This document shows, one piece after another, positions 22,097 through 57,115 of a stretch of DNA of 64,000 nucleotides; position 1 is the stretch's first letter, and each line of letters opens with the position of its first letter. This DNA comes from a virus (taxonomy: Duplodnaviria; Heunggongvirae; Uroviricota; Caudoviricetes): IMG/VR virus record IMGVR_UViG_2529292920_000018, positions 2,322 to 66,321 of that record. The stretch is one strand, 5' to 3'. The notes below the pieces were generated by a model. That model was not told the DNA's origin, did no database searches, and saw only the letters and a list, made by a program, of their open reading frames with translations. The position numbers were made by a program, and so were the translations under genes.

Positions 22097-22825
22097 ATGA
22101 CGCAGACACTGAATCCGGTCATCACTGTCACCGTGTCCGGTCCTGTGGGCAGCGGTAAAAGTTACATATTGGCGCGAATAGAGGAAGTGGTGAAACAGGA
22201 ATTCGGAAACAGCGTCATTGTCGACGCCGCAGACGTGGACGGTGAGCGCCGTATGAGTGGGGATGATCTGAGCACATGGCAGAAACCACGGGCTGGCACA
22301 GTGATCAGGCTGGAGGAATACACGGGACAGGGCCTGTTGTCATACGGCGAGGAGCGTATCTGTCGGACGAATGAGCTGCTGGATGTTATATGCCCCACGG
22401 GCCGGCAACCCTGGATACTGCCCGATGCACTGCATGCCACCATTGCGGCACTGATGACAGTTTACGATCAGGAGCTGCTCATGAAGGAGTTACGTAAACT
22501 CACTGGTCAGTCAACAGAATGTTGTTCGTCCCCGAAGTACGGCAAACAGGAACACATCCCGATTAACCAGCCTCCCCGGTTCTTCGACGAATACCTTCTG
22601 ACACCGGAAAATAAAGCTGAGCATGAAGAGATCAAAGCGGCGTTGTTCCGGGAAATCAGGAAGATTGCTGAAATGCAACTGGAGGGCGGGCTGGACAGAG
22701 TGATGGCGAGAGGAGAATGGGCATCGCTGTTTGAAAGAGTTTCCCCGGAATTACTTCCCCTCGCACTGGCTATCGGGATTATGCAGACAGCGGATAAACC
22801 TCACTTACGTTCATTAAACACGTAA
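22097..22825 (+). CDS. P-loop NTPase-like cargo protein, function unknown
   Basis: Walker A motif GPVGSGKS near N-terminus; plus-strand gene inserted between late operon and Dam. Confidence 0.5.
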   Translation: MTQTLNPVITVTVSGPVGSGKSYILARIEEVVKQEFGNSVIVDAADVDGERRMSGDDLSTWQKPRAGTVIRLEEYTGQGLLSYGEERICRTNELLDVICPTGRQPWILPDALHATIAALMTVYDQELLMKELRKLTGQSTECCSSPKYGKQEHIPINQPPRFFDEYLLTPENKAEHEEIKAALFREIRKIAEMQLEGGLDRVMARGEWASLFERVSPELLPLALAIGIMQTADKPHLRSLNT

Positions 22826-23205
22826 CGCATAATCCGGGATACGCATTCAGCGATGACTGCATTTTCACCGGTTTTTACTGCATCCAGAAGTGACTCTTTA
22901 AATGGTACGGGCCGGGGCTGCAGAAAGGTCGGCATGGCATTGAGCAGACAGAGCGTTTTTTCCGTGAGGACGACATCAGCCGCTCCCACAGCCAGCAACT
23001 GAGAGTAACGAATATAGCTGTTATCCCGAAGCCATATCAGCGTATCAATAAAACACCGGCACTTTTTCTGGTCGTGATCAACCTGGTCCGGGATATCGAA
23101 AAAACCAGAATAAATCAAAACCTGAGGTGCCGGATGCGTGTTCAGTAATCGGCAGAATATTTTGCCGGTGAGTACATAAAAATCATCATTTAAGGAGTGC
23201 ATCAT
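22801..23205 (-). CDS. hypothetical protein
   Basis: 134-aa ORF convergent with and overlapping the P-loop gene 3' end; no good RBS at the first ATG. Confidence 0.3.
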   Translation of the reverse strand: MMHSLNDDFYVLTGKIFCRLLNTHPAPQVLIYSGFFDIPDQVDHDQKKCRCFIDTLIWLRDNSYIRYSQLLAVGAADVVLTEKTLCLLNAMPTFLQPRPVPFKESLLDAVKTGENAVIAECVSRIMRYVFNERK

Positions 23206-23419
23206 GAATCCCCGATTAACGTTAACAGAACATCAGCGCCGTGCTGAAGCAGTGAACAATGTTCTGGAAGATATTATCCGGTTATACCGCGGAGAACTGA
23301 GTGTCTGTCGTGCCGCTTTTCATTTTCAGGGAATACAAAAGCAGTTTGATACTTCTGTTTTTGCAGAAGGTATTACTTATGCCCTGGACCGGATAAGGTC
23401 AGAAAATCGCCCCGGATAA
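23204..23419 (+). CDS. hypothetical small protein
   Basis: 71-aa ORF with AAGGAG 6 nt upstream of ATG. Confidence 0.45.
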   Translation: MNPRLTLTEHQRRAEAVNNVLEDIIRLYRGELSVCRAAFHFQGIQKQFDTSVFAEGITYALDRIRSENRPG

Positions 23420-23609: not shown

Positions 23610-24374
23610 ATGAAAATGCAGACATTACCCATCGTGCCGTGGATTGGTGGCAAACGCCGCCTTGCAAAACACATTCTGCCGCTGTTTCCGGCGCATGAAT
23701 GTTATGTGGAGCCGTTTTGTGGGGCAGCAGCGCTCTATTTTCTTAAGACACCCGGCAAGATCGAAGTCATCAATGATATCAACGGTGAACTGGTGAATCT
23801 GTACCGGGTGGTAAAGCATCACCTGGAAGAATTTGTCCGCCAGTTCAAATGGGCGCTGGTCAGCCGTCAGATCTACAAATGGCTGCAGATCACCCCGGAA
23901 GAAACACTGACGGATATCCAGCGTGCGGCACGGTTCTACTACCTTCAGAAGCAGGCGTTTGGCGGCAAGGTGGCAGAGCACAGCTTCGGTACCTCCACCA
24001 CATCCCCGCCACGCTTCAACCTGCTACGTATTGAAGAAGAACTGTCAGCGGCACACCTGCGGCTTTCCAGAACAGTCATAGAACACATGGACTGGCAACA
24101 GTGCATTGAGCGTTATGATCGTCCGCACACGCTGTTCTACTGCGACCCACCGTACCTGGGTACGGAAGGCTATGGTGTGGATTTTCCTGAAGGGAACTAC
24201 TCGCGGCTGGCAGAGCTGGCCCGGTGCATCAGAGGAAAAATGATAATTTCGGTGAACGACATCCCGCAGATGCGCGAGGTGTTCACTGGACTGAACATAC
24301 AGACAGTGAATATCAACTACAGTCTGGCGGGTAAACCCACGCCGCGCCGTGAACTGCTAATCTGCAACTTCTGA
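23610..24374 (+). CDS. dam: DNA adenine methyltransferase (Dam / D12 class)
   Basis: DPPY catalytic motif and FCGAAALYF SAM-binding motif; start set at ATG 23610 (MKMQTLPIVPW). Confidence 0.85.
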   Translation: MKMQTLPIVPWIGGKRRLAKHILPLFPAHECYVEPFCGAAALYFLKTPGKIEVINDINGELVNLYRVVKHHLEEFVRQFKWALVSRQIYKWLQITPEETLTDIQRAARFYYLQKQAFGGKVAEHSFGTSTTSPPRFNLLRIEEELSAAHLRLSRTVIEHMDWQQCIERYDRPHTLFYCDPPYLGTEGYGVDFPEGNYSRLAELARCIRGKMIISVNDIPQMREVFTGLNIQTVNINYSLAGKPTPRRELLICNF

Positions 24375-24381
24375 AACAAAA

Positions 24382-24404
24382 CCGGAAAGCACAATGCTTT
24401 CCGG
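24382..24404 (-). terminator. perfect 10-bp-stem hairpin, possible bidirectional terminator
   Basis: CCGGAAAGCA-CAA-TGCTTTCCGG; T-tract follows on the minus strand only. Confidence 0.4.
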
Positions 24405-24490
24405 TAAACCAAACAACTTCCACTATGTCACTGGCGATGTTTTCTGAAAGCATCCAGATCAACCACCTGTCCTTTGTGTCCGGGTCAGTA

Positions 24491-24847
24491 TCAGCCTGCG
24501 ATTTTTCCTGGTTTTGGCTGAGTATAGAATCGCCCAATCTCAAGAAATGAGCGTTGTTGGTCTGGTGTCATGTCGTCAAAAGTATCTATTAGTTTTTGTT
24601 TTTCTGGGGAAATTTGATTCTGGTTTCTAGTCATACCATCTGTGCTCATTCCAGTGAGCAACCAATTTACATCAACATTAAACTCTTGATGCATCTTTAA
24701 CAGAAACTCCCCTCCAGGCATCGCCTTTCCATTTTCAATCTGACTGATACCACCATTAGAAATACCTAAACGAGCTGCAAATTCTCTCTGGTTCAACCCT
24801 GCTTTCTTCCTCACAGAAATAACGCGCTCTCCTATATCTTTGCTCAT
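24491..24847 (-). CDS. phage repressor, XRE-family HTH
   Basis: HTH motif QREFAARLGISNGGISQIENGK; divergent from ner. Confidence 0.75.
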   Translation of the reverse strand: MSKDIGERVISVRKKAGLNQREFAARLGISNGGISQIENGKAMPGGEFLLKMHQEFNVDVNWLLTGMSTDGMTRNQNQISPEKQKLIDTFDDMTPDQQRSFLEIGRFYTQPKPGKIAG

Positions 24848-24870
24848 AAAAGTGAATCTCTATCTTGATA

Positions 24871-24888
24871 TGCTCATAATTATGAGCA
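24871..24888. promoter_or_regulatory. putative operator: perfect 18-bp palindrome
   Basis: TGCTCATAATTATGAGCA between TTGATA (24865..24870) and AATAAT (24888..24893); half-site TGCTCATAA repeated at 24841..24849 over the repressor start. Confidence 0.5.
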
Positions 24889-24940
24889 ATAATCTAACAC
24901 ATATAAGGCAAACATCATTGCATCAACAAAGGAGACAACG

Positions 24941-25129
24941 ATGACTGCAGAACAAGTCAAAGCTCTCTTCCGCCAGCGCGGGATCACTTTCACCCGCTGG
25001 GCAGAAGAAAACGGCTACAACCGCAATGAGGTATACCGCGTTCTCAACGGGCAGACCAAAGCCCGTTACGGTAAATCCCATGAAATCGCCGTGAAGTTGG
25101 GACTGAAATCAACAGCTCAGGCGGCCTAA
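24941..25129 (+). CDS. ner: Ner-like DNA-binding regulator
   Basis: 62-aa HTH protein, first gene of rightward early operon. Confidence 0.6.
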   Translation: MTAEQVKALFRQRGITFTRWAEENGYNRNEVYRVLNGQTKARYGKSHEIAVKLGLKSTAQAA

Positions 25130-25175
25130 ATATTTTGAGTCTTTGTAAAAGGTTATCACATATCGCAAAAGAGGT

Positions 25176-25490
25176 ATGCAGATGAGTAAGACGAATGTTT
25201 CAAGCTCCGGCAGTCGCATCCTCCGGGTACTCAAAGCGCTGCGCGGTCATGCCCTGAACGGTATTTCTAACGGTGAACTGGCGACAGCACTGCACGAGTC
25301 ACCGGCAAACATCAACCGGGCACTCAACACCCTCATTGAAGAAGGGCTGGCTCTGAAACTGGAGAACGGACGTTTTGCACCGGGCATCCAGTTACTGCAG
25401 ATCGCCATGGCCCACAGTAACGAGATGGCACGTGCACAGGATCGTATTAACGAAATTAACCAACGTGTCATTTCAGGTAGTCGTTTGTAA
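25176..25490 (+). CDS. hypothetical protein, possible winged-helix DNA-binding
   Basis: 104-aa ORF in early operon. Confidence 0.4.
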   Translation: MQMSKTNVSSSGSRILRVLKALRGHALNGISNGELATALHESPANINRALNTLIEEGLALKLENGRFAPGIQLLQIAMAHSNEMARAQDRINEINQRVISGSRL

Positions 25491-25500
25491 GGAGTAATCA

Positions 25501-26421
25501 ATGGGACGTACCAAATCACCGATTAACACTGAACTGAACGCCGATGTACCGCTGTCGGATGATCTCAACGTCAGCCTGAATGCCATGACACAGCATCGCA
25601 TGGAGATCATGCAGCAGTTTGGTGATGGACTGCCTTATGAACGTGAACGCATCGTTCACGAAGCACGTTTTTATATGGCGCAGAGTGCTGAATCTATGTT
25701 GGAAGCGGGTAAGCGGCTGATCATCTTAAAAGAAAATGAACCGCATGGTGATTTCACAAATATTCTGGAAAACGACCTCGGATTAGCACCACAGGTAGCT
25801 CGTCGCATGATGCAGGCCAGCGTGAAATTTCTCGGCAATGGAGATGAACAGCCAAAACGCTCAGCGCTGAGCGTTTTGGGAAAAACCAAGTTATATGAAC
25901 TGATGGTTCTGGATGACGAAGAACTCGACGCATTAGCTGATGGTGGAACCGTCGCCGGTGCAACGCTTGATGATATTGATCGCATGACCAGCCGCGAACT
26001 GAAGGCCGCCCTGCGTGAAGCGCGCGAAACCAACGCAGCTCAGCAACAGGTGCTTGCCGGAAAGGACGAAAAAATCAACGAACTGGCCACAAAACTGGAG
26101 AAGAAATCGCGCCTGCAACCTCCGCCGCCAGACGAAGAACTGAAAAAATTGCGGGCGGAAGTGACGGCATTAGCGGTTGAGGCCGAATCGGCTATCGCCG
26201 TCCGGCTGTCCAGTGTTTTTGAGACCCTGTGTGAATACTGCACCAAAAACATGATCGATACCCCCAGAGATTTCATGGCCGGTCTGGTCTGCCAGATTGA
26301 ACGCAGTGTTCATGCATTACGTGAGACGTTTGACCTTGAGGCCGCTCCATCGGGTAACGATGCCCCCGCCTGGCTGACCGAACCGGAACCTGAAATCAAC
26401 CGACCGGAGGATATGCAGTAA
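25501..26421 (+). CDS. hypothetical early protein, acidic coiled-coil
   Basis: 306-aa ORF between ner and transposase. Confidence 0.45.
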   Translation: MGRTKSPINTELNADVPLSDDLNVSLNAMTQHRMEIMQQFGDGLPYERERIVHEARFYMAQSAESMLEAGKRLIILKENEPHGDFTNILENDLGLAPQVARRMMQASVKFLGNGDEQPKRSALSVLGKTKLYELMVLDDEELDALADGGTVAGATLDDIDRMTSRELKAALREARETNAAQQQVLAGKDEKINELATKLEKKSRLQPPPPDEELKKLRAEVTALAVEAESAIAVRLSSVFETLCEYCTKNMIDTPRDFMAGLVCQIERSVHALRETFDLEAAPSGNDAPAWLTEPEPEINRPEDMQ

Positions 26422-26738
26422 TGAATACGAATAACACACAAAATACCCTGATGGACAGCCCGGAGGCACTGGGGCACGCACTGTGTAATCTGCTGCCGGA
26501 GATGGTGCAGGGTTTCCGCGTGGTGACCCCTTCCGGTGAAATCTGCGTACCCGCACAGGAGACGCACCCGTTTGTACTGACGATGGAGGTGATGCTGATG
26601 CAGCAGATAAGACGTCTGCAGAATCAGTCAGCATTACGCCCGGTAGTTGCACCGCAACCGGTAAATACCGTGGTGAAAACCTGCGATGGCGAAACACTGT
26701 GCGACCTCGCCAGAAAAATTGCCGCCAGAATCGGATAA
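26421..26738 (+). CDS. hypothetical protein
   Basis: 105-aa ORF overlapping the upstream stop (ATGA). Confidence 0.4.
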   Translation: MNTNNTQNTLMDSPEALGHALCNLLPEMVQGFRVVTPSGEICVPAQETHPFVLTMEVMLMQQIRRLQNQSALRPVVAPQPVNTVVKTCDGETLCDLARKIAARIG

Positions 26739-26753
26739 CAGGGAAGACAAGCT

Positions 26754-28523
26754 ATGACCCCGGCACTGACTGAAAAACTGGTTGAAACAGCCCGCGCGGC
26801 ACGTGACGCGGGGCATGGTAAACGCGGTGCAATATACGACGCTGCCTGTGCTGAACTTGGCATGTCCCGCGCCACTCTGCTGCGCAGGCTGAAGGAGGTA
26901 TCTGTGACTGATAAACGCAAAAAACGCGCCGATGCCGGGCGCAGCGCCCTGACCCGCGACGAAGCCGCGCTGATATCTGCCACACTGCGTGAGGCCACCC
27001 GCAAGAACGGTAAGCGTCTCTATTCCATCGCAGATGCAGTGGAAACCCTGCGGGCTAACGGCTTTATCACCGCAGGCAGAACAGATGAAACCACCGGTGA
27101 GTTTTTCCCGTTGTCTGAAGATGCCATCAGCCGTGCTCTGCGTAACTATGGCCTGCACCCGGAACAACTGGATGCCCCTGCACCACATACCGAAGTGGCC
27201 AGTCTGCATCCCAATCATGTCTGGCAGATTGACGCCTCACTCTGCACGCTTTACTACCTGAGCAATGGACATAAAGGGCTGCAGGTGATGGACAGCGCGA
27301 AGTTCTACAAGAACAAGCCCGCTAACCTTGCCCGTATCGCCAGTGACCGCGTGTGGAGTTACGAGATTACCGACCATGCCAGCGGCTGGATTTACGTTGA
27401 GTATGTGACGGGCGCGGAATCAGGTGAGAACCTGTGTTCTGTGCTTATCAACGCCATGCAGGAGCGTGGCGGCGCAGACGTGCTGCACGGCGTGCCGAAA
27501 ATACTCTATCTCGACCCCGGCTCGGCAAACACCGCGGGTATGACGAAAAACATGTGCCGCTCACTGGGCATCGACCTGATAGCGCACAAGCCGCATAACG
27601 CCCGCGCCACCGGACAGGTGGAAAAGGCGCGTGACATTATCGAACGCAAGCTGGAGCCGGGTCTGAAGTTCCGGCCGGTTCACAGTCTGGAAGAACTCAA
27701 CGCGCTGGCCGCGAAATGGCGCAGCCACTTTAACGCCACGGCTGTTCACAGCCGCCACGGTAAAACCCGCACGGATATCTGGCTGAAGATTACTGCTGAG
27801 CAGCTGAAAAAAGCGCCTTCCGTTAAGGTATGTCGTGAACTGGCTGTGGCGGCACCAGAACTCCGCAAAGTCACGCCAAAACTTCGTGTCTCGTTCCGGG
27901 GCACTGAATTTGACGTATCAACGGTACCGGGCGTACTGGTTGGTGAAAAACTGATGATTACCCGTAACCCATGGCGCAGCGATGTGGCACAGGTGGTTCT
28001 GACTGGTGAGGACGGCCACGAGACGTTCTTCCTGGTCGAAGAGGTCAGAAAGAACGAGTTTGGCTTTGCTGAAGGCGCGGCGGTATTTGGCGAAAGTTAC
28101 AAAGCCCTGCCGGAAACCCCGGCACAGATGGCGGCAAAAGAAACCGAAGCGCTGGTTACCGGTACAGACAACGCCGCAGATGCAGCCGCCGCACGCAAGG
28201 CGAAGGCGCTGCCGTTCGGCGGGCGGCTTGACCCGTATAAACATATCGACGACACCACACTTCCGGCCTATATGCCGAAGCGTGGTCAGGCCTCTGACGT
28301 ACGCGGGCCGCGCACTGAACAACGTCCCATGACTCATGTGGAGGCCGCGAAAGCCCTGCGCGATAAGTTCAGCACCGACGGCCTTACCTGGACGCCGGAA
28401 CATTACCGCCAGTTAACGGCACAGTACCCGGACGGCGTACCGGAAGCCGCACTGGATGAAGTCATGGCCACGCTGACCACACCGGCCCGCAGCAGTGTTA
28501 TCAGCATTGTTAACGGCAACTGA
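26754..28523 (+). CDS. DDE transposase (Mu A-like, integrase-core fold)
   Basis: 589-aa ORF with HVWQIDASL and YLDPGSANT catalytic-core-like motifs; followed by an AAA+ target-selection ATPase. Confidence 0.8.
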   Translation: MTPALTEKLVETARAARDAGHGKRGAIYDAACAELGMSRATLLRRLKEVSVTDKRKKRADAGRSALTRDEAALISATLREATRKNGKRLYSIADAVETLRANGFITAGRTDETTGEFFPLSEDAISRALRNYGLHPEQLDAPAPHTEVASLHPNHVWQIDASLCTLYYLSNGHKGLQVMDSAKFYKNKPANLARIASDRVWSYEITDHASGWIYVEYVTGAESGENLCSVLINAMQERGGADVLHGVPKILYLDPGSANTAGMTKNMCRSLGIDLIAHKPHNARATGQVEKARDIIERKLEPGLKFRPVHSLEELNALAAKWRSHFNATAVHSRHGKTRTDIWLKITAEQLKKAPSVKVCRELAVAAPELRKVTPKLRVSFRGTEFDVSTVPGVLVGEKLMITRNPWRSDVAQVVLTGEDGHETFFLVEEVRKNEFGFAEGAAVFGESYKALPETPAQMAAKETEALVTGTDNAADAAAARKAKALPFGGRLDPYKHIDDTTLPAYMPKRGQASDVRGPRTEQRPMTHVEAAKALRDKFSTDGLTWTPEHYRQLTAQYPDGVPEAALDEVMATLTTPARSSVISIVNGN

Positions 28524-28533
28524 GGAGGGAAAC

Positions 28534-29700
28534 ATGCTGGTACTGAAGCAGCAACTGAAAGAGGCCCGTATTCCACAGGCGGTGGTGGCGAGAGCTGTCG
28601 ATGTTTCTGAGGCCACGCTGGCCCAGATTGTGAATCATAACGCGTGGCCCCGCACCAGCCCCGGAGAAGTGCGCCGGCGTCTTGCGTCCTGGCTGGAAAG
28701 TCAGGGGATTGATACAACGAAGAGTTTTGATGCTGTACAGGGCGCGGCCACGCCCCGTACAGCGGGTACCACAGATAAAACGAGCCTCAGTGAGGAAGAG
28801 AATATGTTACTCAAAAAACAGGTGTTATTTCCAGCAACCAAAAAAGCGTTTGGTCTTTTCCGTGACCCGTTCGCCGACGAAGCCATGCAGGGTTCTGATG
28901 ATGTGTTCACCACCCCGGATATTCGCTACGTGCGTGAGGCGTTGTACCAGACAGCCCGTCATGGTGGGTTTATGGCCGTCATCGGTGAGTCCGGTGCGGG
29001 TAAATCCACGCTGCGCCGCGACCTGACTGAACGTATCAACCGCGAGAATGCGCCGGTAATTGTTATCGAGCCATACATCATCGCTATGGAAGACAACGAT
29101 GTGAAAGGGAAAACCCTGAAGGCAGCAGCGATTGCCGAAGCCATTATCAGTACCATCGCACCACTGGAAAGCATCAGACGCAGTCAGGACGCCCGCTTTC
29201 GCCAGTTGCATCGCGTCCTGAAAGACAGCAGCCAGGCGGGGTTCAGCCACGTTCTGGTGATTGAGGAGGCCCACAGTCTGCCCATTCCGACACTGAAACA
29301 CCTCAAACGCTTTTTTGAGCTGGAGTCCGGTTTCAAAAAACTGCTGTCCATCGTGCTGATTGGCCAGCCGGAACTGGCGACAAAACTGTCTGAACGCAAT
29401 ATGGAAGTCCGTGAAGTCGTTCAGCGCTGTGAGGTGGTCGAACTTCTGCCTCTGGACAATAACCTTGAAGAGTTTCTGACGTTCAAACTGCAACGGGCCG
29501 GTAAACAACTGACGGACATTATGGACGCCAGCGCAGTGGATGCCATACGTGCCCGCCTGAGCAATCCGGGAAGTCATCGTAAAAATATGGTCAGCCTGCT
29601 GTATCCGCTGGCCGTCAGTAACCTGGTAATAGCCGCCATGAATCTGGCCGCTGAAATCGGGGTTCCACAGGTCAACGCTGACGTTGTCAAAGGGGTTTAA
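28534..29700 (+). CDS. transposition ATPase (Mu B / TniB-like AAA+)
   Basis: Walker A GESGAGKST, Walker B VLVIEEAH; start at ATG 28534 with GGAGG upstream. Confidence 0.8.
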   Translation: MLVLKQQLKEARIPQAVVARAVDVSEATLAQIVNHNAWPRTSPGEVRRRLASWLESQGIDTTKSFDAVQGAATPRTAGTTDKTSLSEEENMLLKKQVLFPATKKAFGLFRDPFADEAMQGSDDVFTTPDIRYVREALYQTARHGGFMAVIGESGAGKSTLRRDLTERINRENAPVIVIEPYIIAMEDNDVKGKTLKAAAIAEAIISTIAPLESIRRSQDARFRQLHRVLKDSSQAGFSHVLVIEEAHSLPIPTLKHLKRFFELESGFKKLLSIVLIGQPELATKLSERNMEVREVVQRCEVVELLPLDNNLEEFLTFKLQRAGKQLTDIMDASAVDAIRARLSNPGSHRKNMVSLLYPLAVSNLVIAAMNLAAEIGVPQVNADVVKGV

Positions 29701-29702
29701 TA

Positions 29703-29972
29703 ATGAAATCCACCACAGGTATCAACCAGCAAATCAGCAAAGTGCAGTCAGCCATTATGGCGCTTAAGGCGACGAACACGGATGTACAAAGCATCACCAT
29801 CAGGGGTAACAAACCTGTCATCCGCGTTTCCCGGAGTGCGCATTGCATGCGCATGCTTGAGCAGGGAAAGGCCTGTTATCTGTATACCGGTCATGACCAC
29901 AGGGGACATTTCCGTCAGGGCGTTTTCGAACTGCACGGCTGTCGCGTCGTGTGGCCGGAATCTTTGTGGTAA
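29703..29972 (+). CDS. hypothetical early protein
   Basis: 89-aa ORF immediately after the B-like gene. Confidence 0.45.
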   Translation: MKSTTGINQQISKVQSAIMALKATNTDVQSITIRGNKPVIRVSRSAHCMRMLEQGKACYLYTGHDHRGHFRQGVFELHGCRVVWPESLW

Positions 29973-29999: not shown

Positions 30000-30530
30000 A
30001 TGGCAAAAAGTACAAAAGGGGCAAAACGTATCAAAGCCGCAGCAGCACTCTGGGTGCCGGGGACACGCGAAGAGGTCATTGAGGGAATCAGACTGCTTGG
30101 TGACGCGCAACGTGAACTGGTCAGGGCTGAAACAGAAATGAATGACACCATTGGCGACATCACTGCACGTTATGCCCCGCTCACCGAGAGCCTGAAAAAA
30201 CGCATGGCCGAACTGCAGTCCGGTATCCAGACATGGTGTGAGGCGCACCGTGATGAACTGACCGGCAACGGGAAGGTGAAGTTCGCTAACCTCACCACCG
30301 GCGAGGTGCAGTGGCGAAACCGTCCGCCGTCAGTCAGCATTCGCGGGGCGGATAATGTCATTGAACTGCTGAGACGTCTGGGGCTTGAGCGCTTTATTCG
30401 TGTAAAGGAGGAAATAAATAAAGATGCCATTCTGAATGAAAAAGAGGCTGTGAAAAATATTCCCGGTATTACCATAAAAAGTGATATTGAGGATTTTTCA
30501 ATAATTCCTTTTGAGCAGGATGTGCAGTAA
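30000..30530 (+). CDS. gam: host-nuclease inhibitor Gam-like protein
   Basis: 176-aa ORF with Mu Gam family features. Confidence 0.7.
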   Translation: MAKSTKGAKRIKAAAALWVPGTREEVIEGIRLLGDAQRELVRAETEMNDTIGDITARYAPLTESLKKRMAELQSGIQTWCEAHRDELTGNGKVKFANLTTGEVQWRNRPPSVSIRGADNVIELLRRLGLERFIRVKEEINKDAILNEKEAVKNIPGITIKSDIEDFSIIPFEQDVQ

Positions 30531-33181: not shown

Positions 33182-33542
33182 GGGGCCGGAACTCCTGGTG
33201 GAACTGGCACAGCATACCTCTGAGACCGTTCGCGAGATTATTGATATTGAGCCCGAAGTTGCCGACCAGATTGGTCAGGCCGTCGCGAACCGAATGATGC
33301 AGGTCTGGGGCGGGCAAAACGTTTATTTCCCGATGGGCATGGTATGGAAGGTCAGTCAGCGCGACCGGGAAATCTTCAGGGAGTTTAACGGACGCAACCA
33401 CCACGAACTGGCCCGCAAATTTGGTGTTTCGCTTCAGTGGGTCTACAGCGTGGTTAAGCGGGTAAGAAAAGAAGAACTGGATCGGATGCAGGGCAAGCTA
33501 TTTGCTGATGAACCCGATGCAGATACGGAGAAAAAAGAGTAA
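33153..33542 (+). CDS. mor: Mor-family middle-operon transcription activator
   Basis: QVWGGQNVYFP ... ELARKFGVSLQWVYSVV Mor/C-family C-terminal HTH. Confidence 0.75.
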   Translation: MSDLNQFRSKGPELLVELAQHTSETVREIIDIEPEVADQIGQAVANRMMQVWGGQNVYFPMGMVWKVSQRDREIFREFNGRNHHELARKFGVSLQWVYSVVKRVRKEELDRMQGKLFADEPDADTEKKE

Positions 33543-33571
33543 TATCTGCAATCAGGCTGGCGCGAGTTCTG

Positions 33572-34376
<805 letters not shown>

Positions 34377-34377
<1 letters not shown>

Positions 34378-34856
34378 TATCCCGCCCCCGTCATACCCGT
34401 GAATTTAGTCGCCATACTGCCAGCCTTACCGATGAGCGATTCCGCCTGTTTACCGATATCGCCATAAAGCGCGGCCAGTGATTCATCAACGCGGGTGAGC
34501 GACAGCGTAAAATCAATTTTCCGGGGTGTGCCATCTGCAAAGAAAATACTCCCTGTTTCACTCACCTTGCTGATGACATACATGCCGTAAATCATGCCGG
34601 TGCCATCCAGCAACGGCCACGCCCGCCCCTCCTCTGCCATCAGCCTGAGCGTGGTCATCGTCAGCTTGCCGCCGGTCAGTTCGGGATAAAGCACACCGGC
34701 AAGCGTGATGTTTTCCTCACCCACACCGAGAAACTGAAAAGCGTCCCGTTTACCGATACGGGAATTTGACGGCCAGCGATAATCTGATTCACGCTGCATG
34801 GTCTGGTGTGGCAGCGTCTGGCGCATAAAAACAAACATACCTAACGCGAGCATCAT
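34377..34856 (-). CDS. U: tail protein U
   Basis: 159-aa ORF between T and D as in P2. Confidence 0.75.
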
Positions 34857-34870
34857 TTTTCGTCACCTCC

Positions 34871-37318
34871 TTAACCGTCATGCATCATGCTGGCACGGGC
34901 GCGCGCACGTTTATCCCGCTCGTATTTTTCGAGCGCATCCTGTAACTGGCGGTCGAGCTGTGTCCCCGGCGCAGTACCACCCGTCAGGCTGATGTGATAT
35001 TCGTTTTTACTCTGGTCTACATAAGAGCGGCCAGCCGGTGCCGTGACCGGCTGATAAGCCTGATAACCTGCATAAGAGCTGGTCGCCGGAATATAACCAC
35101 CGCTGCCATACGTGGCGGCTTGAGTTCTGGCGGCGGTCTGGTCAAGTGTGTCTGACTCTTTGTTGATAACACCGAGTTTTTCCAGTACCCAGTCAATACC
35201 ACTGCGCAGTTTGTTGAACGCATTAAGCGGCAGCATCAGCGCGTCAGCCAGTGCCTGCCCAAACATGACGCCCGTGTCACGGCAACGGTTCAGGGTGTCC
35301 TGGGTGGCTTTGACCGGGGCAATCAGGTTTTTAAACCACTGCCACGCGGCCTGTAACTTTTCACCCAGCCAGTCAAACACCGGTTTAAGTGGCGTGAACA
35401 GTTCCCCCACCGGCGCAAATGCCGCTTTCAGCCCTTCCACCACACCGCCAAAGAATGCGCTGACAGGCTCCCAGTATTTACGGATAAGCAACGCCCCGGC
35501 GACAATTGCAGCCACCACGGCCACAACCGGCCAGCTAATCGCCCCGATGGCGGTTATAACAGCACTGCCAACCGTCGTGAAGATTGCCCCCATTGCGCCT
35601 GCTGCCGCGATGATGGCATTGATGCCGGTGATAACCGGCCAGGCTACGAGGCCAATGGCACCGATGACACCAATCAGTGCCAGTGCACCACCGACAATGA
35701 TGCCGATGGTTGACGCCAGTGATTTGTTTTTCTGGATCCAGCCGTCGAGTTTTAACACATACTTTGTGGCCGTCTGCGTGAGATTACGCAGTGCGCCTTC
35801 CTGCTGGTCAAACAGGTCAGTCCCCACCGCCTCATAAGCGGACTGAAACTCCTTAAAGTCACCGCCGAGGTTGTCCTGCATGATATTTACCAGCTCTGCG
35901 GTCTTCCCGTCTGAGGCTTTAAACGCAGCGGTCAGTTTGTCCAGCTTTCCGGTTGAGGCGGCAGTCATCAGCACAGCGGCGGCTGAGCTGGCCTCCTCCC
36001 CGAAAATGGTTTTCATGTATTCAGCCTGCTGGGCAGTACCGAGCCGGTTTTTCTCAAAACTGGCCTGCATTTCTTTCAGAATGGTAAATATTGGCCGGGT
36101 GTTTCCCTTGCTGTCTGAGGTTTTCACTCCAAGCTCTTTGAGTGCATCCCATGCTTTTCCCGTCGGTGCCTGCAGGCGGCTTAACACGGCACGGCTTCCC
36201 GTCCCCGCCATTGAGCCTGTGATTTTTGCATCATGCAGCGCCCCGACCATTGCGGCAGTTTCTTCAATGCTGACACCGGCATTTTTTGCCACAGGTGCGG
36301 CATAGGTCAGCGCATCGCTCATGCCGTCAAAATCGGCGGCGGTTTTGTTCATCGTCATGGAGAGAACATCCCCGATATGAGCGACCTTATCGTTTGAAAG
36401 CTGAAAGGCGGATTTCATCCCCATCAGCAGGGCGGCGTTTTCTTCCATCGTGCGGCGGTTCGCCAGCGCCATATTCAGCGTGACCGGCGTTGCCGCCTGA
36501 ATGGCATCAACATCCCCACCCGCTTTCGCGATGATTATCTGTGCACCGGCCGCATCATCCGCCGAGGCGGCGGTATTGTCGCCGAGCTGGCGCGCCTGTT
36601 TGCGTAGTGCGGTCATTTCGGCGGAGTCTTTTGCCACTCCGAGCACGGCCTGCAATTCTGAGTTTTTCTGCGCAAACTCATAACCGGGCATCAGCAACTT
36701 AACTCCGGTCATCGTTCCCGCCGCCGCAATCCCCACACCGGCAGCGCCTACTGAGGCCATATTTCCGGCCAGTTCCTTTCCGGCCTGATAACGCTGTTTG
36801 ACTGCGTTAAGTTTTGCCTGTTGCGCACTGACACGCGCCAGCGCGTCGCGCTGACGGTTAAGCTGTGCGGTGGTTTCACTGATACGGTTTTTCAGTCCCT
36901 GCTCATCATGTGCAAGATTGCGGGTATTAATTCCCACAGCGGCCAGTTCCCGCTGCTGGCGTTTAACGGAATCTGTCAGGCGGTTATATTTCGCCTGTAA
37001 GTCCTCCGCCGCACGCTTTGCGGATTCCAGCACTTTCGCCTGACCACGGGTCGGACGTTCGGTGTTTTTAAACTGTGTGGCAAGGGCTTCGGCCTCCTGC
37101 CGTGCCTTTTCAAGTGCATGACCAGTCACGGCGAGCTGTGCACTGGTCTTGCGGAATCCCTCAATACGGGATGCCTGACCGTTCAGCTCGCGCAGTGATT
37201 TTTGTGTTTCCCGGATATCCCCCGACAGCGATTTGCTCGCTGTGCGGATGGATTTAAACGGACGGGATGCCTGGTCAACAGCCCTGAGCAATACCTGTAA
37301 TTTTACATTGTTACTCAT
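34871..37318 (-). CDS. T: tail tape measure protein
   Basis: 815-aa Ala/Gly-rich ORF. Confidence 0.85.
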   Translation of the reverse strand: MSNNVKLQVLLRAVDQASRPFKSIRTASKSLSGDIRETQKSLRELNGQASRIEGFRKTSAQLAVTGHALEKARQEAEALATQFKNTERPTRGQAKVLESAKRAAEDLQAKYNRLTDSVKRQQRELAAVGINTRNLAHDEQGLKNRISETTAQLNRQRDALARVSAQQAKLNAVKQRYQAGKELAGNMASVGAAGVGIAAAGTMTGVKLLMPGYEFAQKNSELQAVLGVAKDSAEMTALRKQARQLGDNTAASADDAAGAQIIIAKAGGDVDAIQAATPVTLNMALANRRTMEENAALLMGMKSAFQLSNDKVAHIGDVLSMTMNKTAADFDGMSDALTYAAPVAKNAGVSIEETAAMVGALHDAKITGSMAGTGSRAVLSRLQAPTGKAWDALKELGVKTSDSKGNTRPIFTILKEMQASFEKNRLGTAQQAEYMKTIFGEEASSAAAVLMTAASTGKLDKLTAAFKASDGKTAELVNIMQDNLGGDFKEFQSAYEAVGTDLFDQQEGALRNLTQTATKYVLKLDGWIQKNKSLASTIGIIVGGALALIGVIGAIGLVAWPVITGINAIIAAAGAMGAIFTTVGSAVITAIGAISWPVVAVVAAIVAGALLIRKYWEPVSAFFGGVVEGLKAAFAPVGELFTPLKPVFDWLGEKLQAAWQWFKNLIAPVKATQDTLNRCRDTGVMFGQALADALMLPLNAFNKLRSGIDWVLEKLGVINKESDTLDQTAARTQAATYGSGGYIPATSSYAGYQAYQPVTAPAGRSYVDQSKNEYHISLTGGTAPGTQLDRQLQDALEKYERDKRARARASMMHDG

Positions 37319-54889: not shown

Positions 54890-55049
54890 CGCCCGCTTCA
54901 TGGGGCGGTTTTAATGCAGTTGCATTACCATACAGAAGTACTGCCACGTCTGACAATTCATAGCTAGAATGTATAGCATATGTTGCATGCAAAATAATGC
55001 ATATAAAGAATGCTTTTCACTCAATACTTCATCATACGATTTTGTTGGC

Positions 55050-55832
55050 TCATTTTAGAAGCCCTATTATAGCTGCAATCATACTTCCTACGCCGCCGAC
55101 TGCTGCGAAAAAAGTAGCCCAAAACATTTTCTTCTGAGTACTCAAATTCTCTCTGTACCGCACCTCATCTTTATTGAATGTAGATATTGTGTTCAGTGCC
55201 TTTCCTGTTGGCCTAAATCCACTACTTGTTTCAACAAGATCTCCATTCTGAACAAGAGAATTCAGGCATAAACGAAGCTCTTTACGCATCCTGTTTTTAT
55301 CGTCATGGTATACCCATAAACTACCAGCGACTTCGGTCATTATTGAAAACTCACTAAACACAGTTTGAGCATCCCATTCACGATACATTCTTATAATCGT
55401 TGAGAGAACAAACATCACATCAGTTATTTCTTTTTTTTGCTGTCGATAAATATATTTTTCACGACTAAATTTTATATTTTCATAATTAGACCTTACTCTA
55501 AAGAACAACTCCCTTAAAAATGTTAAATCATTTAAAGAGTTAAATCGCAACTCATGCGCACGGTAGTAGTAAACACCAAAAAAAGAATCAGGCGTAACCT
55601 CAGAAATATCCAAGCATGAACTTATATGAAATCTACGCTCCTCATCATCCCATTTAAAAGCCTTTATCTTCCCATCAACCAAACAGTCAAAGAGGTATTC
55701 TGTATCATTTTTATCTTTAATATATACAGAGTACATATCATACTTAATCGCGTTTTCATATAACAAACTAATACGGCCATCATCTGGCGTTCTTTTCTTA
55801 TCAAACTTCTTAAGTTGGTTTATAACTTTCAT
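55050..55832 (-). CDS. hypothetical cargo protein with C-terminal membrane anchor
   Basis: 260-aa ORF in an AT-rich island; C-terminal TM MFWATFFAAVGGVGSMIAAIIGLL. Confidence 0.5.
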   Translation of the reverse strand: MKVINQLKKFDKKRTPDDGRISLLYENAIKYDMYSVYIKDKNDTEYLFDCLVDGKIKAFKWDDEERRFHISSCLDISEVTPDSFFGVYYYRAHELRFNSLNDLTFLRELFFRVRSNYENIKFSREKYIYRQQKKEITDVMFVLSTIIRMYREWDAQTVFSEFSIMTEVAGSLWVYHDDKNRMRKELRLCLNSLVQNGDLVETSSGFRPTGKALNTISTFNKDEVRYRENLSTQKKMFWATFFAAVGGVGSMIAAIIGLLK

Positions 55833-55941
55833 AACATTCTCGCAGTGCTAATCTCATACGCAACAAATCTCGGCTCTGCCGCTCTAATAGTCAAAAAATG
55901 CCGACACCCAATTAAATATTCAGCGTCGGCATTGTAAGATA

Positions 55942-56673
55942 TCAATTATCTATGATTGATATCACCTTACCAGTTTTTATATCAACACGCGCAGCAATCG
56001 TCTGTTTCACCACTCCGCCATAAGCATTTTTTCCGCGAAACGTGGTTTTCACAATGGCATGAGGGTCTTTATTCAAAACCAGATGATATACCGTTGACAC
56101 ATGTTTATAAGATGAATCATCGTTCATATTATCTTTAATTAGTTTTTCCAATGGACGATAAGAACCATCCCAACCACTAAAATTACTCTGAAATGTATCA
56201 AGATTGATTTTATTGTTTAGTGAATTCGGGTCATTTTCATAATCATTAAAGCACCACCCAAGAACATCACCGAGTTTCAACTCATCATCTTTGGTAAATG
56301 TATATTCACTCATGCAGGCATAAAACGCATCTGACGCGGTGGCTGGAACTTCCTTAAAATCAATGTAACTATTCACAATATCGTGTCGTGTTTTCTTTGA
56401 CTCGTTCCGATATTCCTTGAGTGTTTTTTTACCATATTTGAATGTTTTTTGGACTTTATGTTCTGCAACGGTTGATGTTTCAGTTTTATCAACTGGCTGG
56501 CTTTTTTCTGTTGGATAGAGTATTGAACCAATTATGCTCAATACAAAACCTCCTCCGAGATAAACCGCACTTGCACGTTTGCGGTTTGGCATTCGCACCA
56601 GTGATGGCTTGATTAACCCGATGAAGAAAGCAACGAAAAAAGCGAGTGATAGAAAAGCGATTATAGTATCCAT
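55942..56673 (-). CDS. hypothetical cargo membrane protein
   Basis: Start at ATG 56673 with AGGA 7 nt upstream; two N-terminal TM helices; AT-rich codon usage. Confidence 0.5.
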   Translation of the reverse strand: MDTIIAFLSLAFFVAFFIGLIKPSLVRMPNRKRASAVYLGGGFVLSIIGSILYPTEKSQPVDKTETSTVAEHKVQKTFKYGKKTLKEYRNESKKTRHDIVNSYIDFKEVPATASDAFYACMSEYTFTKDDELKLGDVLGWCFNDYENDPNSLNNKINLDTFQSNFSGWDGSYRPLEKLIKDNMNDDSSYKHVSTVYHLVLNKDPHAIVKTTFRGKNAYGGVVKQTIAARVDIKTGKVISIIDN

Positions 56674-56896
56674 AGCTATCCTTTTTGCATCATCCACATA
56701 AAAAATCGACCTCATGTTAGCAACAGGATGCTTACTTTTGAATATTTGTAAGTTGTTAGCTCTCCAACCTAACTCCTTTCAACCGTCAAAAACCGGCACC
56801 AACGCAGTAAAAATATGTCTGTCAACTAACGCCTCGCTACGCTCGTTGTTCAACCCCGCCAGCCCTGAAAACAAGTTTCACGACTGGCGGCGTTCT

Positions 56897-57115
56897 CTAT
56901 CGTCTTCGTGGTGGTGGCGCAACTCTGGACTGACCGATATAGTTAAGCCGCCCGTAATTATCCCGAACTATTTCGGCACACCCGACCAGCTCATCGGGCG
57001 TCAGATTTTCGTTGACCATAATCCGCTGTAAACGCTGAACAATAGCCATCAGCTTGATATTTTTAGTTTTATGGTGCGGTATCTCGCCTGGTATTCTGTG
57101 CATTATCCAAGCCAC
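56897..57115 (-). CDS. hypothetical small protein
   Basis: 72-aa ORF overlapping the end of the upstream gene; weak support. Confidence 0.25.
   Translation of the reverse strand: MAWIMHRIPGEIPHHKTKNIKLMAIVQRLQRIMVNENLTPDELVGCAEIVRDNYGRLNYIGQSRVAPPPRRR

Follow-up and report, generated by a model that had tools for sequence, protein, structure and literature searches.

In phage Mu the gene ner is directly followed by the transposase gene A, and transpososome assembly is promoted by a cis-acting internal site, the enhancer or internal activation sequence (IAS), together with domain Iα of the MuA protein. A different early region is found in the transposable phages of the BcepMu/B3 group, where a gene for a winged-helix protein of ~100 amino acids (aa) and a gene for a DUF3102 protein of ~305 aa precede the genes of the transposase, TnpA, and of the transposition ATPase, TnpB. 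This order occurs in B3 (ORF14, 13, 12 and 11), phiE255 (gp42–39), BcepMu (gp12, gp10, gp09 and gp08, with gp11 between the first two), KP12, Ps60, phiSHP3 and Mae-JY22. The present analysis concerns the equivalent region of a 64,000-nucleotide (nt) stretch of phage DNA (positions 2,322 to 66,321 of IMG/VR record IMGVR_UViG_2529292920_000018, hereafter the window), in which three genes at 25176–26738 lie upstream of a transposase gene. The second of them encodes a 306-aa DUF3102 protein and contains a perfect palindrome.

The winged-helix/DUF3102 pair is the sole conserved part of the BcepMu/B3 transposition module that has no known role. A gp10-like protein stands before the transposase in the published annotation of phage KS10 (PMC2628397). 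A 2023 RNA-seq study of the B3-like phage Fc02 left the open reading frames (ORFs) of the early operon mostly unassigned except for the transposases, gemA and mor (PMC9936078), in agreement with a first-pass annotation of the window, which called the three genes unassigned; none of them has an experimentally defined function. Essentially no functional literature on DUF3102 was found, beyond three passing mentions in the texts searched. The reading proposed here, which sequence comparison makes moderately probable, is that these are early genes of the BcepMu/B3 type and that the DUF3102 protein is a dimeric, site-specific DNA binder with a cognate site inside its own gene, serving the transposition module.

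Comparison with BcepMu, B3 and Mu

By similarity, the locus is assigned to the early region of a BcepMu/B3-type transposable prophage (PhiKM-like, Bcepmuvirus) of Escherichia coli. It shares gene order and orientation with BcepMu, B3 and phiE255, lying downstream of a divergent repressor and gp16 pair, and has an intragenic palindrome at the same codons. Its components are direct homologues of theirs: gene 1 corresponds to B3 ORF14, BcepMu gp12 and phiE255 gp42, and gene 2 to ORF13, gp10 and gp41, with tblastn identities of 34–58% for the winged helix, 38–55% for DUF3102 and 56–69% for TnpA. The window differs from these phages in having its own allele of a variable cassette (helix PQVARR, core CGCTCAGC; see below), an extra 105-aa gene before the transposase (gene 3) and no upstream CII-like/gp13 gene. 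All phage records with a homologous transposase (69/69) belong to the BcepMu/B3 group. Fc02 and JBD25 were missed by tblastn for DUF3102, yet both genes are in place there, and Fc02 gp14 matches the winged-helix profile with a probability of 98.9%.

The arrangement extends well beyond these phages. Genome loci were collected with a five-sequence alignment from Gamma- and Betaproteobacteria and Spirochaetia (Enterobacterales, Burkholderiales, Cellvibrionales, Methylococcales and others), and in 71 of the 74 TnpA follows the DUF3102 gene; TnpB follows in 68/74, and a winged-helix gene lies immediately upstream in 66/74. Contig ends and degraded copies account for the exceptions, together with the Spirochaetia loci, where the winged-helix gene is missing. 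The spacing between the DUF3102 gene and tnpA is 0–40 nt from Enterobacterales to Spirochaetia; in relatives of the window the DUF3102 stop codon is 3 nt from the tnpA ATG, and a GGAGG is shared. Synteny comparison across related transposable phages, proposed in the first-pass annotation, thus shows winged-helix and DUF3102 genes upstream of the transposase to be the rule. Genes 1 and 2 are, as judged from these comparisons, conserved upstream partners of the Tn552-like transposase A and the AAA+ ATPase B of this lineage; databases already contain the genes, which are nothing unusual in phages of this kind.

The same annotation had described three ORFs of 104, 306 and 105 aa between ner and the transposase as a departure from Mu. 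The ORFs are present, although the first is better read as 102 aa from 25182, and the order cited for Mu itself is correct. The comparison does not hold, as the transposition module has no detectable Mu homology. BLASTP found no detectable similarity between the transposase and MuA (best E=0.48) and none between the gp16-like protein and Mu Ner (E=5.9), and the winged-helix profile aligned to MuA residues 1–101 with a probability of 0.7%. The protein labelled Ner belongs to the BcepMu_gp16 family (TIGR04111, E=3e-28). This lack of MuA and Ner similarity rules out the Mu-type ner–A junction as a reference; BcepMu and B3 are the correct ones, and in their group genes 1 and 2 are standard. As for homology to Mu-like early proteins of defined function, it is clear for BcepMu gp12/gp10 and B3 ORF14/ORF13, but these have no defined function. 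The transposase matches phrog_310 only from profile position 130, a late start that would fit, weakly, a missing N-terminal DNA-binding function.

A palindrome within the DUF3102 gene

Gene 2 (25501–26421, + strand) contains at 25852–25879, around codons 118–126, a strand-neutral palindrome of 28 bp that is perfect and has no spacer between its arms (CCAAAACGCTCAGC and GCTGAGCGTTTTGG). It is the longest perfect palindrome in the 64-kb window; the next has 11-nt arms and is the repressor terminator. No other copy of the palindrome, even with three mismatches allowed, or of its half-site was found in the window. When the codons of gene 2 were shuffled, none of 2000 shuffles reached an arm of at least 12. 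Across 82 loci symmetry is found at the same codons, with at least 10 of 14 positions symmetric in 75 loci, at least 12 in 60 and at least 13 in 43.

The homologous palindromes are 24–32 bp long and lie 15–60 bp downstream of the codons for the predicted recognition helix. Their outer arms are conserved (CAAA[AT]/[AT]TTTG), and their cores differ. The arms are CAAAACGGACAAC and GTTGTCCGTTTTG in B3, CAAAACGGACAGC and GCTGTCCGTTTTG in phiE255 (containing CGGACAGC up to the centre), TTCAAAAGCGGCGTT and AACGCCGCTTTTGAA in BcepMu, and CCAAAAGCGCAAGC and GCTTGCGCTTTTGG in KP12 (core GCGCAAGC). They are CAAAAGCGAAAAC and GTTTTCGCTTTTG in Photorhabdus, TCAAATCGCTCAAC and GTTGAGCGATTTGA in Spirochaetia, and CCAAAACGGGCGGC and GCCGCCCGTTTTGG in Mae-JY22; the core in Ec1117 is GCGACAAC.

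Variation between these sites is compensatory. In 47 distinct 36-mers, 93.3% of cells are complementary compared with 72.7% in shuffles, and there are 125 double-sided changes compared with 40 (0/500 shuffles reach either value); the register was set by best symmetry and sites below 10/14 were excluded, which inflates the percentage paired but cannot create double-sided changes. In slid registers 31–48% of cells are complementary. Covariation reaches the innermost pairs: in the 47 sequences columns 17–20 are A-T in 21, G-C in 19, C-G in 2, T-A in 2 and mismatched in 3, with 23 double-sided changes, while columns 16–21 show 7 such changes and 1 mismatch. A change at column 17, where an Ala/Thr codon (GCG or ACG) begins, goes with one at column 20, the first base of the Leu codon that follows (CTN or TTG), and there the choice is synonymous. 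Neither pair of columns could form in a hairpin, because the loop would be shorter than 3 nt. Since the innermost pairs covary, the synonymous Leu choice included, selection appears to act on the dyad symmetry of duplex DNA, the signature of a symmetric-dimer site.

Intragenic palindromes were absent from other DUF3102-type genes, namely those of phage-plasmids, of Lactobacillus plasmids and of the Fc02/JBD25/Ps60 type. In the literature searched (the original BcepMu and B3 papers lie outside it), no description was found of the conserved intragenic palindrome, its compensatory variation or the residue–base correspondence set out below. A 20-bp perfect palindrome (AGCGGACAGC and GCTGTCCGCT) was observed in the Citrobacter plasmid pRHBSTW-01013_2 (locus L094, 4502–4521), ~400 bp upstream of a DUF3102 gene, and its core is that of the phiE255/L015 half-site. 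It was set aside: the helix there is of another class (HRVALH), a sister Enterobacter plasmid is without the site, and the match is possibly a coincidence.

Predicted recognition-helix residues and half-site bases

The gene 2 protein scores 27.0 bits against PF11300 (DUF3102), for which the cut-off is 24.4, over residues 65–173; 79 of 88 family members match, and the subfamily comprises 1585 clusters at 50% identity (E≤1e-3). The protein had earlier been described as acidic, rich in coiled coil and lacking an assignable motif. It is indeed acidic (isoelectric point (pI) 4.74), but DUF3102 lies above the Pfam cut-off, and gene 1 likewise has an IclR/MarR-type winged helix. A model built from an 88-sequence alignment (predicted local distance difference test (pLDDT) score 86) is all-alpha with a compact N-terminal part, long helices at 164–205 and 210–249 and a further helix at 256–277. 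The predicted layout consists of a helical N-terminal domain with a helix-turn-helix (HTH)-like element (~48–135), a conserved LDDIDRMSxRELRxALRE motif, a helical element and an acidic tail with a conserved PxW. Codons 84–111 (25750–25833, + strand) read as the predicted HTH: DFTNILENDL (helix 84–93), a GLA turn and PQVARRMMQASVKFL (helix 97–111).

In fold this N-terminal HTH is predicted to come nearest to DNA-binding domains of the KorB/ParB type. Because the scores are modest and comparison of the family profile with R751 KorB was negative (hhalign probability 0.1%), a resemblance of fold is proposed here and not membership of ParB/KorB. Remote homology searches, another check suggested at the outset, placed gene 2 in Pfam and PHROG families but gave no signal in hhalign against KfrA and nothing meaningful, including no ParB/KorB chains, in PDB sequence searches with the 306-aa protein, the full-length profile or the domain profile. 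Full-length fold searches with the gene 2 model were uninformative. No ParB/Srx N-terminal domain was matched by gene 2, no ParB family appears among the Pfam matches listed, and no ParA gene is present among the annotated genes of the related prophage in E. coli JJ2434.

Covariation between residues and bases was analysed in 55 distinct cassette-plus-site combinations. Residue 101 is R whenever half-site positions −8/−7 are CG (18/18), Q whenever they are GC (28/29) and some other residue whenever another dinucleotide is present (8/8); residue 98 is R where position −6 is G (45/45) and Q where it is C (7/7). The highest excess mutual information with the core, 1.02 bit, is at residue 101, followed by residues 99 (0.58) and 98 (0.54); nowhere else in the cassette is it above 0.54 (0.54 at residue 96 and 0.53 at residue 86). 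PQVARR in E. coli and QQSARR in Spirochaetia both pair with CGCTCA; ERAARR/ERTARR (B3, phiE255 and a Usitatibacteraceae metagenome-assembled genome) and PRVARR (E. coli) all pair with CGGACA; and RIAQK (Photorhabdus, Pectobacterium, Dickeya and Cellvibrio) pairs with GCGAAA. The same pairings thus recur in backgrounds that are only 38–50% identical (E. coli/Spirochaetia and B3/Usitatibacteraceae).

Fisher values for the association are 4e-13 and 7e-9. The tests take no account of phylogeny, and common descent of the alleles and linkage of helix to site make these figures look more significant than they are; more weight falls on the clustering of the signal on the helix and on its return in cassettes that have diverged. 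Neither the winged-helix protein nor TnpA can read the variable core, because both are ~99% identical between prophages with different cores. On this covariation it is likely that the DUF3102 protein binds the palindrome at 25852–25879.

A probable exchangeable specificity cassette

Among E. coli prophages whose TnpA and TnpB genes are 96–100% identical in DNA, identity in the DUF3102 gene drops to 50–63% around 25730–25960. At the protein level residues 81–135 are ~51% identical and the flanks 93–97%, and codons 84–111 lie within this hypervariable part. Spearman correlations were calculated over 27 Enterobacterales loci with the cassette taken as residues 77–155 (or 84–125). Cassette identity gave a rho of 0.15–0.23 against TnpA, 0.17–0.24 against the C-terminal half of the same protein and 0.12 against the immunity region. 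No covarying partner was found (absolute rho ≤0.24) among the immunity region, the repressor, gp16, the winged-helix protein and TnpA (whole or N-terminus), nor among TnpB, Dam and four downstream early proteins. The C-terminal half of gene 2 follows TnpA with a rho of 0.91–0.93. Different cassette alleles accompany identical immunity regions and transposases in loci L015, L019 and L022, and identical alleles accompany unrelated immunity regions in L005 and L018. There is good support for the view that helix and site together form one exchangeable specificity cassette, which would recombine independently of every neighbour tested.

The two halves of the protein are distributed differently among homologues. 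Fc02 gp13 matches the family (hhalign 98.3%) with confident signal mostly in the C-terminal half, and has a different N-terminal domain, no PF11300 match and no intragenic palindrome. The Pseudomonas subgroup to which it belongs (Fc02 gp13, L090 3023–3997; JBD25, L091 3020–3997; Ps60, L006 3797–4753) keeps the C-terminal half without a palindrome, the PF11300 scan having covered Fc02 gp13 only; as there is no intragenic palindrome, a DNA target in this subgroup, if any, must lie elsewhere. The DUF3102 proteins of phage-plasmids and Lactobacillus plasmids have only the N-terminal domain in common with gene 2. Neither a Pfam domain nor a Rosetta-stone clue was found in the N-terminal extensions of longer homologues (434–545 aa). 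Extensions of 150–280 residues are present in P0278, P0324, P0268 and P0334; three Cys-rich repeats of C..C..H..C-type occur in P0278 and may form a zinc-binding addition.

Proposed role in transposition

In the proposed mechanism, the N-terminal HTH of the DUF3102 protein would bind the palindrome in its own gene, the long helices behind the HTH would make the dimer, and the C-terminal half would couple the bound site to the transposition proteins, a step with modest support. The link between DUF3102 and transposition, also modestly supported, is suggested by near-abutment with tnpA across phyla, covariation of the C-terminal half with TnpA and retention of that half after replacement of the N-terminal part, and also by the plasmid-borne DUF3102 proteins, which lack this half and have neither a neighbouring transposase nor the palindrome. 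The bound complex might act in cis on replicative transposition, as an enhancer or an identity tag aiding or licensing the assembly of the transpososome, or it might be an intragenic roadblock that feeds back on, and so limits, transcription into tnpA–tnpB. The first of these options, a cis-acting activator, would explain why specificity has diversified among phages that share near-identical transposases.

A more specific form of the identity tag, which must be regarded as doubtful, is that the dimer binds the sole site in its own genome and that the C-terminal half recruits or licenses the transposase and ATPase, in the manner of the Mu enhancer and MuA domain Iα. Because transposases and ends are near-identical among co-circulating prophages, cassette shuffling would give each phage a private activator–site pair. 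If this were true, the tag would stop related co-resident prophages from being mobilised or from competing, and transposable phages would have a second system of specificity, one that does not depend on immunity and whose amino acid–base code can be read (Q98/R98, R101/Q101).

Like the Mu enhancer, the palindrome lies inside a transposable phage, away from its ends and close to the early regulatory region. The likeness is pure analogy, without homology: the palindrome is a single intragenic site rather than a set of operator repeats, it lies ~8 kb from the prophage end, and the DNA-binding function would be supplied in trans by a protein encoded beside a transposase that is shorter than MuA at its N-terminus. 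ParB–parS and KorB–OB, which have palindromic sites, some of them inside or next to their own gene, may resemble the present pair in HTH fold and in the placing of the site. The DUF3102 protein differs from ParB and KorB in showing no sequence relation (hhalign 0.1%), in lacking an N-terminal CTPase domain and a ParA partner, in having one site in the prophage part of the window, and in belonging to a phage transposition operon, not to partition or global regulation. TniQ/TnsD systems (Tn5053/Tn7-like) follow the same three-part logic of an rve transposase, an AAA_22-type ATPase and a separate DNA binder of variable specificity. Here, unlike in those systems, the covarying site is on the element itself and not in the target, and no TniQ domain was detected by Pfam (E≤0.1) in any of the three proteins. 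Palindrome and covariation may represent a variant of the HTH-dimer/palindromic-operator theme that takes the form of a mobile specificity cassette within a transposition operon.

The palindrome and the residue–base code provide a first experimental handle on a large protein family, in the form of a 28-bp site, specificity residues and sets of natural alleles. Should the pair control or license transposition, it would show how the tasks of an enhancer and of self-recognition are handled in a transposable phage not of the Mu type, and it would offer orthogonal protein–site pairs for engineering. BcepMu/B3-type prophages are common in E. coli, including ST131-labelled isolates, and are also found in Burkholderia and Pseudomonas pathogens.

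Several points weigh against a site-specific binder serving transposition. Binding has been deduced from covariation only, and linkage within anciently diverged alleles could explain part of the residue–base association, helix and site being 15–60 bp apart; the choice of register and threshold noted above inflates the percentage paired. The prophage part of the window (1–33704) contains a single site, unlike the multiple sites typical of ParB/KorB. The protein as a whole is acidic, but the core at 48–135 has a pI of 8.3, the acidity being located in residues 136–178 and the tail. The palindrome is also predicted to fold in RNA, with a 12-bp stem and a 4-nt loop (−19 kcal/mol, z=−3.2, 0/200 shuffles as stable); the hairpin is flanked by A and U tracts, and a terminator role is possible instead or as well. 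Finally, on phage-plasmids and Lactobacillus plasmids the DUF3102 genes have neither a transposase beside them nor a palindrome within them, so that the link with transposition holds for this subfamily and not for DUF3102 at large.

Alternative explanations

A plain regulatory role apart from transposition is a serious rival, and a possible one, although it is not the favoured reading. Genes 1 and 2 would then form an autoregulated operator–regulator pair of the lysis–lysogeny or early-to-middle programme, and their adjacency to the tnp genes would reflect operon history. Winged helices of the IclR/MarR type are typical regulators, B3 has a CII-like gene just upstream, and an intragenic operator would serve as a roadblock. 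In Enterobacter and Citrobacter phage-plasmids, moreover, the DUF3102 gene comes first in an operon, next to a divergent junction and ahead of the gene for a Mor-family activator, without a transposase. None of the opposing points is decisive. A repressor, a Ner-position protein and Mor are already there; the DUF3102–tnpA order and close spacing persist from Enterobacterales to Spirochaetia; and the C-terminal half is transposase-subfamily-specific, covaries with TnpA and survives N-terminal replacement.

The palindrome might instead act as a nucleic-acid hairpin, an intrinsic (possibly bidirectional) terminator/attenuator or RNA-processing site that limits read-through into the transposase genes, with DUF3102 not its reader. 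The stable predicted fold agrees with this, as do A-tract/T-tract arms around a GC-rich core in nearly all loci and a position upstream of tnpA that would suit dosage control. A hairpin is nevertheless unlikely as the main function: columns 17–20 and 16–21, which it could not pair, covary; the run of T is just 4 nt, with GG after it; the site was not flagged by a terminator scan; and the coupling of residues 98 and 101 to half-site bases would be left unexplained. The two roles, hairpin and protein site, are not mutually exclusive.

It is equally improbable that the palindrome is a real protein site read by the winged-helix protein, the transposase or a host factor, the helix match being a matter of linkage only. 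Such linkage would be expected from helix codons and site that lie within ~130 bp and are exchanged together; the winged-helix protein next door is a likely dimeric DNA binder, and the outer arms CAAA[AT]/[AT]TTTG are conserved, as is that protein within Enterobacterales. Yet in comparisons of the window with Ec1117 or S22EC the winged-helix protein is 99% and TnpA 98.6–99% identical despite different cores, mutual information is concentrated on residues 98, 99 and 101 and not spread over the cassette, and the same residue–base pairings are found in cassettes that have otherwise diverged.

It is hardly tenable that three new genes without motifs entered a Mu-type ner–A junction in an unusual insertion, as the direct succession of ner and A in Mu might suggest. 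No similarity to MuA, Mu Ner and the MuA N-terminus could be detected in the transposase, the supposed Ner and the winged-helix protein, respectively. Genes 1 and 2 have Pfam/PHROG assignments and are standard in every BcepMu/B3-type phage examined, a synteny that refutes insertion for both; gene 3 alone is an insertion.

The small winged-helix protein

Gene 1 lies at 25182–25490 on the + strand, within an ORF of 104 aa (25176–25490). Its probable start is the ATG at 25182 (MSKTN...), which gives 102 aa, has a GAGG 7 nt on its 5' side and agrees with homologues and with the PGAP and PhiKM annotations. The protein matches PF09339 (HTH_IclR) with 26 bits against a cut-off of 22 and phrog_1368 with E=5e-45, and its PDB profile matches are the HTH domains of TtgV (2xrn, E=3e-6), KdgR and MarR proteins. 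It consists of a stand-alone winged helix with one C-terminal helix; no match to the IclR C-terminal effector-binding domain was found in its 102 aa (IclR regulators have ~250 aa).

Among E. coli variants gene 1 is 97–99% identical in amino acids, with 24 synonymous and 3 non-synonymous codons, a pattern pointing to strong purifying selection. Its pairwise identities follow those of TnpA (rho 0.83–0.87) in the 27 Enterobacterales loci. With modest support, gene 1 may be regarded as a second, strongly conserved DNA-binding component of the transposition module.

The 105-aa orphan gene

Gene 3 (26421–26738, + strand; phrog_5446) begins on the final A of the gene 2 stop, so that TAA and ATG overlap (TAATG). 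It is represented by 11 clusters among 5.8 billion proteins, every source-named one being from Escherichia or Salmonella, and PhiKM is the sole phage record that has it. In the loci examined its slot is between the DUF3102 gene and the transposase. KP12, S22EC and UPEC129 do not have the gene and show 3 nt between the DUF3102 stop and the tnpA ATG; alignment of the junctions shows a clean insertion that takes over the GGAGG serving tnpA in relatives without it. As close relatives are without it, gene 3 is dispensable.

Amino-acid-changing and synonymous codons number 8 and 7 against Ec1117 and 30 and 13 against an 87-aa variant; conservation is confined to residues ~10–60, and constraint on the protein is weak. 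In Xenorhabdus prophages a short ORF in the same slot encodes a distant relative (~55 aa), with 36% identity over this conserved core. No Pfam, NCBIfam, PADLOC or PDB matches were found for gene 3. Sequence comparison marks it as a lineage-specific early accessory orphan; that it modulates neighbouring proteins or has a host-directed function is a guess. The DUF3102/tnpA junction seems to be an insertion slot (window 26421–26738 compared with L045 6869–7120): most lineages have nothing there, Photorhabdus (L039–L044) has a spacer of ~40 nt, Xenorhabdus a short ORF, and some Escherichia/Salmonella prophages ORFs of 87 or 105 aa.

Organisation of the early region

The repressor gene (HTH_3; 24491–24847, − strand) is divergent from the early operon. 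The only sigma-70-like promoter within 24300–27000 is TTGATA-17-AATAAT at 24865–24893 (+ strand), the early promoter candidate, and under it lies an operator-like palindrome, TGCTCATAATTATGAGCA (24871–24888). The first early gene, in the Ner position, encodes a 62-aa HTH protein of the BcepMu gp16 family (24941–25129, + strand; TIGR04111, phrog_925). A scan between the genes found no internal terminator-like or promoter-like signal. Since there is a single upstream promoter and no such internal signal, the three genes belong to the early operon.

All three ORFs are real genes. Each is preceded by a ribosome-binding site and has an end-to-end PHROG match (gene 1 E=5e-45, gene 2 E=1e-143, gene 3 E=1e-73), genes 1 and 2 differ from relatives mainly at third codon positions, and gene 3 has its distant Xenorhabdus homologue in the equivalent place. 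Among PADLOC defence models, gene 1 gave generic HTH-level matches, gene 2 a marginal coiled-coil match and gene 3 none. Downstream on the + strand follow transposase A (TnpA; 26754–28523, 589 aa, rve DDE core, BcepMu/B3/Tn552-like), transposition ATPase B (TnpB; 28534–29700, 388 aa, AAA_22/ExeA-like) and a Gam homologue (30000–30530).

Adjoining the repressor is a DNA adenine methylase of the MethyltransfD12 family (23631–24374), which is kept in most Enterobacterales relatives. Between the holin and this Dam methylase lies an accessory block (22097–23419) with a 242-aa protein carrying a P-loop-like GPVGSGKS motif, a 134-aa gene overlapping on the opposite strand and a 71-aa gene. Unrelated genes occupy its place in UPEC129, KP12 and other relatives, so that it resembles a moron or defence hot spot; its PADLOC matches were only marginal (E~2e-3).

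The prophage and its surroundings

Positions 24400–29800 of the window are 99.8% identical to Escherichia phage PhiKM (Bcepmuvirus). The segment 24900–26760 is found at 100% identity in many complete E. coli genomes, including that of JJ2434 and that of an isolate labelled O25b:H4-ST131; of 5426 complete E. coli genomes, ~390 match it at 99% identity or more and 625 carry some version. Some E. coli genomes hold up to three copies or versions of this early region. The JJ2434 prophage is colinear with window 1–33704 at 99.3% identity, and its early operon ends with GemA-like and Mor genes.

The prophage portion within the window is 1–33704, the other prophage end being outside the window. The end at 33704 (...TCTAATCA; ...TCAAGTCTAATCA) has a terminal CA, and two TCTTCCCAT repeats lie ~65–95 bp inside it, which may be transposase-binding sites. 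Comparison of the prophage end (33541–33704) with the early region found one chance 10-mer only as a shared motif. From 33705 (33705–36500) the sequence is that of a P2-like prophage (tail tape measure, late control D and tail protein), 99.7% identical to many E. coli; the same phage in JJ2434 adjoins ycaL instead. As a P2-like prophage abuts its end at 33704, the Mu-like phage appears to have jumped by transposition into another prophage. The published integration-site study covers D3112-group phages only. Further along, at 55001–57000, GC content falls to 0.355–0.41, compared with ~0.55 elsewhere, with a strongly negative GC skew, and this segment may be a horizontally acquired island.

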